From: Escherichia coli
Lineage (GTDB): Bacteria > Pseudomonadota > Gammaproteobacteria > Enterobacterales > Enterobacteriaceae
NCBI RefSeq assembly: GCF_003991155.1
Contig: NZ_CP031293.1
Strand: one strand, 5' to 3'
Length of the DNA: 64,000 nt
Below are positions 42,025-59,780 of the stretch, piece by piece. Both the position numbers and the translations under genes were made by a program. The number at the start of each line of letters is the position of its first letter. Within the stretch, counting starts at the first letter, position 1. The notes beneath the pieces were generated by a model. It was not told the DNA's origin, ran no database searches, and saw only the letters and a list, made by a program, of their open reading frames with translations.

Positions 42025-42231
42025 ATATGCAATAATTAATTGCACTGCCCCGCCAGCTATAATCGCGGGGCTTCGTTTTTCAGGGATAACAAAACCCGAA
42101 ACTTCTTCCATCTGCCAGCAACAATGCCTCTTCCTCTATAGTGTTCTCCGGATCTACAGCATCCTGAAGTAGCGCGATGTACTCACTGGCTATCTGCCAT
42201 CAGAAAGTTAAAAACAATGTTTTTAACCTAT

Positions 42232-42260
42232 AAAAATGGCGCTGTATTTGCGCCATTTTT
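42232..42260. terminator. bidirectional intrinsic terminator between convergent ykgJ and yagU
   Basis: AAAAATGGCGC-TGTATTT-GCGCCATTTTT: hairpin flanked by A-run and T-run, so it works on both strands. Confidence 0.6.
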
Positions 42261-42273
42261 ATCATTCAATGCA

Positions 42274-57879: not shown

Positions 57880-58093
57880 GTTTCGCCTCGCCTGAATGAT
57901 TCTGTAACTCATATTTGCCCAACAATTCGTCCGCTTCCTGAATAGCTTCTGGTACGCCATTGAGCAGTGACATAACCGCGCCAATCATTAACTTGTCTCT
58001 GTTGCTGGGGCTGGCCCCTTCAAGCCAGAACCCTAAAACAGTCTGAACCTGTTCGATGCGACATTGCGCTTCAATGAGCTGGATGTTGGTCAT
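57872..58093 (-). CDS. hypothetical small protein (73 aa)
   Basis: Start overlaps upstream stop (ATGA). Confidence 0.5.
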   Translation of the reverse strand: MTNIQLIEAQCRIEQVQTVLGFWLEGASPSNRDKLMIGAVMSLLNGVPEAIQEADELLGKYELQNHSGEAKHE

Positions 58094-58353
58094 TTCGCAC
58101 TCTCCACATCGATTAAACCGATATCTATCAGGGAGGTAACTTTTTGTAGCCAGCTATTGATTACTGTCGCCTGTTCCCCTCCCACCGAGGGAACAATCTC
58201 ATTCATCACATGAACCAGACCTGTGCGCGCTCTGGTAAGCCGTTCAGTCGCGCAATCTGCGGGAGTGAATGTGTCTGGATATGGCTCTTCACGCCCCAGC
58301 AATGATTCAATTTCCAGCTCACACGGATGACGATAAATTAAGTTGATATTCAT
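58090..58353 (-). CDS. hypothetical small protein (87 aa)
   Basis: Start overlaps upstream stop (ATGA). Confidence 0.5.
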   Translation of the reverse strand: MNINLIYRHPCELEIESLLGREEPYPDTFTPADCATERLTRARTGLVHVMNEIVPSVGGEQATVINSWLQKVTSLIDIGLIDVESAK

Positions 58354-58544
58354 TTTTCACCCCCAAGAATTACCAGCTCGGCACGGGCATCGTTAACCAA
58401 AGATGAGCACGCTTTAATCGCATCCACGACATCAGCAGCGTCCATTTCTTCAGCCGAAAGACTGACAGCAACCAGGACAGCCGCTGCTTGCTCGATTAAT
58501 TGAAGTGCGGACGTAAGTCGAGGGGCATTAATTGAGTTATTCAT
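58350..58544 (-). CDS. hypothetical small acidic protein (64 aa)
   Basis: ORF 58350-58601; start placed at [10 protein letters not shown] with G-rich SD; overlaps upstream stop by 8 nt. Confidence 0.5.
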   Translation of the reverse strand: MNNSINAPRLTSALQLIEQAAAVLVAVSLSAEEMDAADVVDAIKACSSLVNDARAELVILGGEK

Positions 58545-58755
58545 TGGTTGCCCCCGTTTTTCCTGGCATTTCGCCACCTTCCAGCAGGAAATGAACGTCA
58601 CGAACGGCGAGATCCAATATCGCGAGTAACGCCTTCAGTCTTTCGTCTCGTGAGGGAGAGTTGCTCACCAGAATGTCGTTAATCACTTCTGTCAGTGTGA
58701 TGATCTGGCTTGTGCGTTCGAGGGGATCCATATGCACATCGTAGGTTTTAATCAT
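58537..58755 (-). CDS. hypothetical small protein (72 aa)
   Basis: Start MIKTYDV preceded by GGAGG (6-nt spacer); ATG overlaps stop of the 58748-58942 ORF; in frame with the long 58537-59604 ORF. Confidence 0.5.
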   Translation of the reverse strand: MIKTYDVHMDPLERTSQIITLTEVINDILVSNSPSRDERLKALLAILDLAVRDVHFLLEGGEMPGKTGATNE

Positions 58756-59604
58756 GAGCCACCTCCATGCGGATACGACCAGCAAAAAAGCAGACGTGAT
58801 CGCGCACCAGAGAACGGCGAGCATCGCGTTCAGACTCGGCAGCAATATGATGAATTTTGGCGGTAATTGTCGAGCAATCGCGGCGAACTGCGGCGATAAT
58901 CCAGATAAATTGCGGTTTTTGGGTAGGGGTAGTAGCCAGCATGTGGCAGCCTCCATTCGATAGCATGTAACGCTACCACCGGAAACGCCAATTTCGCTGG
59001 TGGTAGCCCAGACAGGGTTGGCGTAACCGGCTCGAATGGATACCGGCGCTTCCGAAGAAGCCCCTGCCTGAGCCACCATTGATTGACAAAGGCGCTGGAT
59101 TATACACCAACGCCCAAAAAATGGGTGAGTCAGACCTACGACATAAAAAAAGACGCTCGGCGCGTCATATGTCGCCATTCGATTTACTAGGACGCCAATC
59201 CCGGCACCCGTTTTATGAGGTGCCTTATAACCATAAACCGTGTTGCCGCATAACGGCAAGCTCTTTTTTATGGACTCCGAAAACTCGCTATTGGAAGCAC
59301 CAGATGCACAGTACATCGCGCTCATTTCGTTAACGTCACGCGCGTGGACGAATGTTTTTGTGGAGTCACTACACGAGCGGAAGACATCATCTACGACCAG
59401 AAATTTTCTGGCGCAGCCGCTGACCTTCTCAATGCTAATATCATCGCCCGAGATTTCTGATATGGTTAAGGCATCCGTTCCGACCACCAGCAAATGATAA
59501 ACTTTGCTTGTATCTGCTGTATTAATGCCTGACTTTGCCGTCATATTGCTGGATTTTGGCGACATACCAGCCAGTGAAAATGTCTTCTTCTGGACGGTTA
59601 GCAT
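58537..59604 (-). CDS. long open frame (355 aa) from a GGAGG-preceded ATG at 59604; likely real only in its N-terminal about 210 aa, possibly frameshifted
   Basis: No in-frame stop until 58537 although two SD-preceded small genes lie inside or overlapping it; the middle of the translation is low-complexity. Confidence 0.3.
58748..58942 (-). CDS. hypothetical small protein (64 aa)
   Basis: Start MLATTPTQ preceded by GGAGG (7-nt spacer); alternative frame relative to the long ORF. Confidence 0.45.
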   Translation of the reverse strand: MLATTPTQKPQFIWIIAAVRRDCSTITAKIHHIAAESERDARRSLVRDHVCFFAGRIRMEVAHD

Positions 59605-59780
59605 TTGTTAACCTCCGCGAACTCCTTCATGAAACGCGCCAGCGGTTGTACGCATGGCGATTGATACCCGTCGCGATAAAACGTCACTCGGTTGTGAGAC
59701 ACGCTTTCGACAGTAACGAGTGCTCCGTGGGCATCTTTGTAGCGTTTTTGTGGTTGTGGTGTTCCTGTTGGCTTAGACAT
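59598..59780 (-). CDS. hypothetical small protein (60 aa)
   Basis: ORF 59598-59867; start placed at MSKPTGTPQ with GGAGG SD; overlaps antirepressor-like gene end and next gene start. Confidence 0.5.
   Translation of the reverse strand: MSKPTGTPQPQKRYKDAHGALVTVESVSHNRVTFYRDGYQSPCVQPLARFMKEFAEVNKC

Follow-up and report, generated by a model that had tools for sequence, protein, structure and literature searches.

The element described here is an open reading frame (ORF) of 355 amino acids (aa) on the minus strand of a 64,000-nucleotide (nt) stretch of Escherichia coli DNA (contig NZ_CP031293.1 of assembly GCF_003991155.1), referred to below as the window. The ORF lies at 58537..59604, begins with ATG, carries the RefSeq name “ash family protein” and resembles the gene eta of P4. 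Unless stated otherwise all features are on the minus strand. It forms part of an island of the satellite type represented by P4-like elements and phage-inducible chromosomal islands (PICIs), which adjoins tRNA-Thr(CGT) and whose genes, in minus-strand order, encode an integrase, an AlpA-like helix-turn-helix protein, AntA, a DUF4222 protein, the region of the 355-aa ORF, a coupled chain of small genes, and a 919-aa primase. P4-like satellites and the PICIs of Gram-negative bacteria share this plan; passages of PMC10111431 describe the same zones (integration, Bro, replication, and late) for the latter and for helper-embedded PICIs.

The ORF starts at a translational coupling site (59598..59616) in which the Shine-Dalgarno (SD) sequence GGAGG (59616-59612) sits 7 nt 5′ of the ATG (59604-59602), and this ATG overlaps the TAA (59600-59598) of the DUF4222 gene (59598..59780; Pfam PF13973, E 1.9e-24) as ATGCTAA. 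A preliminary description of this DNA had reported the ORF with its start and SD, an embedded 64-aa ORF in an alternative frame, and an embedded in-frame 72-aa ORF, both with SDs and stop/start overlaps; all of this is borne out, and every coordinate given there agrees with the ORF list and the sequence. The probability of 355 stop-free codons is (61/64)^355, or about 4e-8 per start, and the open frame is therefore not a product of chance. Nor is it a sequencing error, a possibility which that description had raised, because 478 complete E. coli genomes cover the DNA of the ORF at ≥80% and public databases already contain the identical protein (P0001, at 100% identity and with 306 member sequences).

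The 64-aa ORF (58748..58942) is an icd-like gene and a homologue of P4 kil: its product matches NCBIfam NF033153 (E 2e-19; 69.3 bits versus 25) and is 39% identical to the 65-aa Kil of P4. The gene possesses its own SD (GGAGG, 58954-58950) and, were it to start at the ATG at 58966 farther upstream, would code for 72 aa; its product is a putative cell-division inhibitor or toxin. The 355-aa ORF reads icd in the +1 frame, and its stop lies 211 nt beyond the icd stop. The 72-aa gene (58537..58755) likewise has its own SD, and its ATG, found within ...GGAGGTGGCTCATGATTAA, precedes the icd stop by 8 nt. Its frame is that of the 355-aa ORF, the C-terminus of which it forms. For a measure of constraint we used a gap-free alignment of nine close E. 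coli/Escherichia relatives, in which variable sites were counted by codon position of the long ORF; across the 72-aa gene these number 2, 2, and 8 at positions 1, 2, and 3, a clear third-position bias. An analogous downstream gene stands alone in locus L003 and is fused in P0038. The 72-aa ORF is an independent gene doubling as the C-terminus of the long ORF. The next gene of the chain (58350..58544; 64 aa, WP_001065661.1 of the Prokaryotic Genome Annotation Pipeline, PGAP) begins with an ATG at 58544 that precedes the stop codon of the 355-aa ORF by 8 nt (ATGAATAA). With the family match of Icd, the codon bias of the 72-aa ORF, and the conservation of the long frame described below, the overlapping genes which had been one of the options in the preliminary description are real.

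RNA genes and promoter within the ORF

The middle of the ORF is occupied by an internal promoter and by the genes for two RNAs, isrK/seqA and C4/CI, all of which had been overlooked previously. The predicted constitutive promoter (59230..59259), the analogue of P4 PLE, consists of a -35 element TTGCCG (59259-59254), an 18-nt spacer, and a -10 element TATGGT (59235-59230), with +1 at about 59223. It was not listed by a simple promoter scan and surfaced only on aligning the sequences 5′ of isrK, where 42 distinct sequences, including that of P4, share the arrangement GGCTTGCnn-18 nt-TATAGT/TATGGT-6 nt-isrK model position 1. Slightly upstream lies a heptamer of the dnaX type, A AAA AAG (59263-59269), at which a -1 ribosomal shift would lead to a stop at about 59227, just before the start of isrK. 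This A-tract is conserved in the window's group, the P4 group having a T-tract, and is probably an UP-like element of the promoter.

The isrK/seqA (a1b1) leader RNA (59146..59223) matches Rfam RF01394 with 60.5 bits against a gathering threshold of 50. The promoter lies directly 5′ of it, and its 3′ end is formed by a terminator hairpin (59166-59152) followed by a U-tract (T7 in the DNA). It contains two target boxes, TTGGCGT (59198-59192) and TCGAATGG (59182-59175).

The C4/CI antisense immunity RNA (58996..59083) matches Rfam RF01695 over its full length (1-87) with 79.5 bits, the threshold being 45. An alignment of 40 homologues reveals a three-helix structure in which 99.7% of cells are paired and 16 of the 27 base pairs show compensatory changes; none of 500 shuffled alignments scored as high on any measure, and controls slid along the sequence were at most 50% paired. 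Two unpaired segments confer specificity: CCATTCGA (59039-59032) in the loop of hairpin 2 and ACGCCAA (59024-59018) in the 3′ joint. They are complementary to TCGAATGG and TTGGCGT, respectively, which occur twice, in isrK and again between C4 and icd. The latter pair constitutes the seqC (a2b2) target (58950..58991), composed of TTGGCGT (58991-58985) and TCGAATGG (58960-58953), the second of which overlaps the icd SD. The two segments of C4 thus pair with seqA upstream and with seqC downstream, the latter covering the icd ribosome-binding site. The pairing of C4 with its targets was judged by direct inspection of the loop and joint, since RNAduplex runs with the whole of C4 are dominated by its own stem. 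By analogy with the known systems, RNase P would process C4 from the leader into a stable immunity RNA.

The specificity segments are hypervariable. Among 47 related loci there are 28 variants of the loop, 15 of the joint, and 33 combinations of the two, and the seqA and seqC targets change along with them: the cognate Watson-Crick run between loop 2 and seqC averages 8.7 nt (minimum 7), compared with 4.5 for non-cognate pairs. Between islands with 96-99% identity elsewhere, some 40% of sites differ across the spacer, C4, and seqC (the equivalent of 58943-59145) at the same length. Immunity types have apparently been swapped among these near-identical islands, in what looks like recombinational exchange of immunity cassettes.

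The first translated gene after C4 is icd, the ATG of which is found 54 nt past the end of the C4 match. A composition rich in C and poor in G (C/G up to 1.8) marks the stretch 58987-58870, which takes in the 5′ part of icd; a Rho loading site like that of P4 timm would fit this, although the sign is suggestive only.

Maintenance of the frame and its position relative to icd

Related loci were collected without reference to the ORF, using Icd alone as the seed and one genome per species; this yielded 47 loci from about 40 species of Enterobacterales, to which the window, P4, and two E. coli loci were added. C4 is recognized in 45 and isrK in 44 of the Icd-seeded loci. In 47 of 48 loci a single frame can be read without a stop from a point 5′ of isrK as far as icd. 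Over the interval from the start of isrK to the SD of icd, only two stop triplets, both in locus L032, fall in the frame of the ORF, whereas the other frames contain 123 and 205; across the hypervariable specificity segments the count is two in the ORF frame and 133 in the other two. Eight distances are found between the start of isrK and that of C4 (98, 101, 125, 128, 140, 143, 146, and 185 nt), all of which equal 2 modulo 3, a result with a chance of about (1/3)^7 if indels are independent. Where a single nucleotide is deleted from the C4 joint, the same variants have lost two more just downstream.

In essentially all loci the start codon of the ORF either overlaps the stop of the gene before it or lies directly against it, and this in spite of the variety of upstream genes: a 91-aa AlpA/Vis homologue in the P4 group and elsewhere DUF4222 or a protein of 196-295 aa. 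In the window's group the ORF reaches 126-615 nt 5′ of isrK through sequences of at least five unrelated kinds, none of which closes the frame. In the window this N-terminal extension accounts for about 105 codons (59290..59604) and has no recognizable domain. Taken together these comparisons indicate that the 355-codon frame is real and is kept open by selection. The preliminary description had suggested that an upstream gene lost its stop through a frameshift and that homologous islands would disclose the ancestral stop. The opposite is seen: a long ORF running from the upstream stop is the ancestral state, as witnessed by 47 of 48 loci and by P4 eta, and what the homologues reveal in place of a lost stop is a 1-nt deletion at the start of icd.

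In 41 of 49 loci (for example L003) the long ORF shares the frame of icd and terminates with it at the same stop, which is the eta/kil arrangement of P4; in E. coli PT62 PGAP calls such an ORF a 303-aa “Icd-like protein.” The remaining eight loci have the long ORF in the +1 frame of icd. Besides the window these are L002, L005, and L017 together with loci from Klebsiella (L006), Pluralibacter (L011), Leclercia (L013), and Buttiauxella (L018). The distance from the start of C4 to the icd ATG is 141 nt in the window versus 142 nt in P4, and in the lineage of the window the loss of one nucleotide between the SD and the ATG of icd has changed only where the ORF ends. Out-of-frame junctions differ from one another, GCCACATGCTG and GCCTCATGGCT being two forms, with the shift farther upstream in L011 and a further form in L017; at least four independent single-nucleotide losses must therefore have occurred. 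No shift to the +2 frame of icd is found among the eight out-of-frame loci, and that frame usually holds stops. As the ATG of the next gene precedes the stop of icd by 8 nt and is in the +1 frame, an out-of-frame ORF merges with it automatically. The +1 frame of icd is free of stops in all eight out-of-frame loci, in only one of the eight loci from the same group that are in frame, and in 28 of 33 P4-type loci, whose long ORF makes no use of it. For the P4-type kil genes (L020-L051) a stop-free +1 frame may be a by-product of composition, or both frames may be kept passable.

Comparison with known systems and likely function

The immunity region of P4 is said to comprise the promoter PLE, seqA, the CI RNA, seqC, the nested genes eta and kil, and a Rho-dependent terminator, timm. 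The isrK and C4 models match P4 in the same order as in the window, within an ORF (L004 4169-4813) that contains MMM at aa 16-18, giving products of 199, 198, or 197 aa, and that ends with the 65-aa Kil in frame. Residues 116-220 of the 355-aa ORF align with residues 14-133 of P4 Eta (40% identity, E 6e-19); this alignment begins a little 5′ of the promoter and reaches the icd SD, where the similarity ends. The likeness thus consists of the order of elements, a homologous promoter, isrK/seqA, C4/CI, and the equivalence of Icd with Kil. Moreover, both ORFs start 5′ of the internal promoter, are coupled to the preceding gene, and span seqA and CI in one frame, and P4 epsilon, like the 72-aa gene, starts 8 nt before the icd/kil stop. 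They differ in that the window ORF has the extra N-terminus of about 105 codons, to which P4 has no counterpart, and follows DUF4222 (itself after AntA), where P4 has vis/alpA. Here kil is not nested in the frame, and the ORF ends with the next small gene at 355 aa rather than at 197-199. The specificity of immunity also differs, the loop and joint reading CCATTCGA and ACGCCAA here and CCTGTGAA and ATTCTCAC in P4.

The passages of PMC10111431 drawn on here recount that in P4 a constitutive promoter lies inside eta and that its transcript ends early via the interaction of CI with seqA (citing Forti et al. 1999), the early-terminated transcript being processed to the immunity RNA CI, and that Kil is a truncated form translated on read-through. 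According to the same passages Eta is translated only from the upstream late promoter, in coupling with an upstream alpA homologue; its translation prevents termination, and nonsense mutations in eta cause premature termination. They also note that the Rfam C4 and isrK profiles detect relatives of CI and seqA in PICIs, inside genes of the Bro zone (PMC10111431, Mageeney et al. 2023). The immunity module and the eta principle are therefore already known, as are the C4 and isrK matches in PICIs. These passages describe neither an out-of-frame arrangement of icd nor a test of frame conservation. The maintenance of the frame across hypervariable RNA loops, the recurrent out-of-frame layout of icd, and the identity of PF10554 with the RNA genes appear to be new, the frame-shifted layout being a minor variation on the eta principle.

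The same design is seen in the lambdoid phage SfV (L058 27243-28079), in which the 278-aa orf37 covers the isrK/C4 match between cro and a replication gene, begins where orf36 stops (ATGA), and extends 8 nt into orf38. A bridging ORF is thus not restricted to satellites, and comparative evidence extends the principle of P4 eta to PICI-like islands and lambdoid phages.

In phages P1 and P7 an antisense RNA is processed from the very transcript it regulates, and a block in icd translation is coupled to termination of transcription. The immI operon of these phages (Rfam RF01695 and RF03163) reportedly consists of a c4 antisense RNA, icd, and ant. Both there, reportedly, and in the window the targets come in two parts, a1b1 upstream and a2b2 at the icd ribosome-binding site; the regulated genes of P1/P7 are said to be antirepressors, whereas those of the window island form the primase operon. 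A tblastn search with Icd against the phage collection gave no match. A further comparison is with isrK-orf45-anrP of the Salmonella prophage Gifsy-1: the window leader fits the isrK model, including the terminator, and a short and a read-through isoform are to be expected in both. In Gifsy-1, by the passages of PMC4825925 consulted here (Hershko-Shalev et al. 2016), the short IsrK acts in trans to switch on translation of the read-through transcript, and the antiterminator AntQ is under its control. There is no sign of this IsrK/AntQ circuit in the window island, where C4 RNA is likely to be the regulator.

We consider it probable that the 355-aa ORF is the counterpart of P4 eta over an RNA immunity module, and that its translation shields transcripts from upstream promoters against immunity-dependent termination by Rho. 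On the model of P4 and P1, processed C4 RNA would pair with seqA and seqC and block the translation of icd; the untranslated transcript would then be ended by Rho inside icd, leaving the replication genes silent. The long ORF would be read only on transcripts from upstream promoters, along which ribosomes would pass from AntA through DUF4222 into the 355-aa ORF, crossing seqA, C4, seqC, and icd and obstructing both C4 pairing and the action of Rho. These ribosomes would terminate at 58537, where the following gene starts, and so continue the coupled chain to the primase; in the variant found in the window read-through ribosomes would yield no product containing Kil. One stretch of DNA is here subject at once to the constraints of RNA structure, RNA-RNA pairing, a promoter, a terminator, and a reading frame.

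Several points weigh against this explanation. Translation of the ORF and its antitermination effect are carried over from P4 genetics. The simple probabilities given above overstate independence, as the loci are phylogenetically related, and conservation of the RNA sequence itself helps to keep the frame open. Some constraint on the peptide may exist in the N-terminal part, where the ratio of nonsynonymous to synonymous polymorphism (pN/pS) is about 0.5. Over icd, the chance of an open +1 frame ranges from 0.18 to 0.62 by codon model, synonymous resampling giving 0.55 for P4-type kil with its own codon usage and 0.18 for the window Icd with the codon usage of the island; selection on read-through is therefore only suggestive there, and we regard it as plausible, not proven.

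A bolder version of the same explanation is that the ORF acts as a “translational bridge,” selected only for being translated and with an irrelevant product, which would bring ribosomes from the upstream operon over both structured RNA genes and their targets and so leave induced transcription blind to the RNA immunity of the island, and whose frame relative to icd toggles recurrently (at least four independent 1-nt deletions, always to the stop-poor +1 frame), so that read-through crosses the toxin gene without a Kil product and hands over to the next gene. This we put forward tentatively, as a possibility on which we are inclined to doubt rather than belief. It would represent a natural example of selection for translation itself.

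The strongest rival is that the ORF encodes a functional Ash/Eta protein, perhaps a regulator of the Bro network, whose amino acid sequence matters and in which the RNA genes are merely embedded. It can point to a curated family, since residues 124-232 match Pfam PF10554 (Phage_ASH) with 105.2 bits against a gathering threshold of 26; PHROGs labels relatives as transcriptional regulators, passages of PMC10111431 treat eta as a gene of the Bro network, the N-terminal pN/pS lies below 1, and the conservation of the frame would also fit a real protein. However, residues 124-232 fall exactly on the isrK and C4 genes, both of which score above their Rfam gathering thresholds, and the profile is in effect a translation of isrK through C4; PF10554 therefore names a position in the genome and not a demonstrated protein domain. 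The residues that are invariant correspond to nucleic acid signals: FF to the U-tract of the terminator, MV to the 5′ stem of C4, and EAA to the icd SD. No codon periodicity of substitutions is seen over isrK, spacer, and C4 in the nine relatives, where variable sites at codon positions 1, 2, and 3 number 7, 6, and 4 for promoter plus isrK, 9, 9, and 7 for the spacer, and 13, 10, and 14 for C4; in the DUF4222 control they number 1, 1, and 6. About 40% of sites in the C4 region differ among these relatives, the frame being open in spite of it, and it is the compensatory changes of the RNA that dominate. In the N-terminal part the counts are 18, 9, and 16, and pN/pS is not significantly below 1, compared with about 0.1 for DUF4222. 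An antisense ORF on the plus strand (59240-59497) was considered and dropped, substitutions being enriched in no single phase. The N-termini of relatives are non-homologous, and the C-termini interchangeable, consisting either of an in-frame Kil or, where icd is in an alternative frame, of different downstream genes. Finally, AlphaFold2 modeling with 66 sequences gave no confident fold (mean predicted local distance difference test score, pLDDT, 33.6; N-terminal part 25-32), and the only region to reach a pLDDT of about 50 lies within the part contributed by the 72-aa gene. We thus regard a protein of this kind as unlikely. What is conserved appears from these alignments to be the openness of the frame and not its sequence, although a functional peptide is possible. 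Because there is neither codon periodicity over the RNA part nor a predicted fold, translation itself is the likeliest role of the ORF, as the shielding of upstream transcripts supposes. For those who use PF10554, a match to “Ash” points to an RNA immunity module, not to the function of a protein. A survey of P4-like satellites took it as the marker for the epsilon protein (PMC8628076); what this marker detects is the RNA immunity region with eta, not epsilon.

A second rival holds that the ORF is never translated, one frame of the RNA sequences being free of stops by accident and the ORF being over-predicted by gene callers. Its core does lie on non-coding RNA genes, and PGAP treats it inconsistently across genomes. 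This is quite improbable in view of the eight spacings equal modulo 3, the compensated frameshifts, the ratio of 133 stops to 2 in the specificity segments, the unrelated N-terminal extensions that are all open, the coupling of starts to upstream stops, and the premature termination that eta nonsense mutations cause in P4, as recounted in passages of PMC10111431.

A third rival, suggested by the PGAP flag in two genomes and by the 1-nt difference from P4 at the start of icd, sees in the ORF an ash gene deprived of its stop or C-terminus, either a pseudogene made by a recent frameshift or the result of faulty assembly. This is very improbable, as the same 1068-nt ORF recurs in complete genomes by the hundred, independent of one another, and is shared by another Escherichia species (L005), out-of-frame versions with at least four junction sequences exist in Klebsiella, Pluralibacter, Leclercia, and Buttiauxella, and Icd retains its own SD, ATG, and intact 64-aa frame. 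Programmed -1 ribosomal frameshifting, which the preliminary description had also entertained, would restore the Eta-Kil fusion of P4 since the ORF is one base off icd, and the frame of the ORF does contain two heptamers of the form X XXY YYZ, one at 59269 (A AAA AAG) and one at 58789 (T TTT TTG); it can scarcely be upheld, as no slippery heptamer is present at the junction (58966-58940), a shift at the first site, in the A-tract 5′ of the internal -35, meets a stop within 15 codons, the second site encodes Phe-Phe of Icd and occurs just as well in relatives with the in-frame arrangement, and no such mechanism is needed because many relatives fuse the two by plain in-frame reading.

Annotation and neighboring features

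The RefSeq annotation of this locus is inconsistent. Six genomes (L052-L057) carry the full 355-aa “ash family protein” and no Icd, while in L001 and L002 PGAP records a pseudogene (“incomplete; missing C-terminus”) together with Icd and leaves the 72-aa gene unannotated; isrK and C4 are annotated in none of these eight. The present analysis settles this conflict, which concerns hundreds of E. coli genomes. Neither the N-terminal 123 residues nor the 72-aa ORF match a family in Pfam, NCBIfam, or PHROGs, and in ten other long ORFs Pfam recognizes PF10554 only, their N-terminal extensions being without a family.

Farther along the chain, the 87-aa island gene at 58090-58353 is named “nicotinic acetylcholine receptor subunit beta” by PGAP in L053 and L055, almost certainly a spurious transfer of the name. 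An Rfam scan (E up to 1) did not find the int-alpA RNA motif (RF02996) between the integrase and the AlpA-like gene of the window; in the related islands L005, L008, L012, L014, L015, and L016 it is present between int and alpA with 46-57 bits. Outside the part of the island studied here, a match to the IS009 RNA (RF02111, 191.7 bits) is located at 42067-42268, also on the minus strand.

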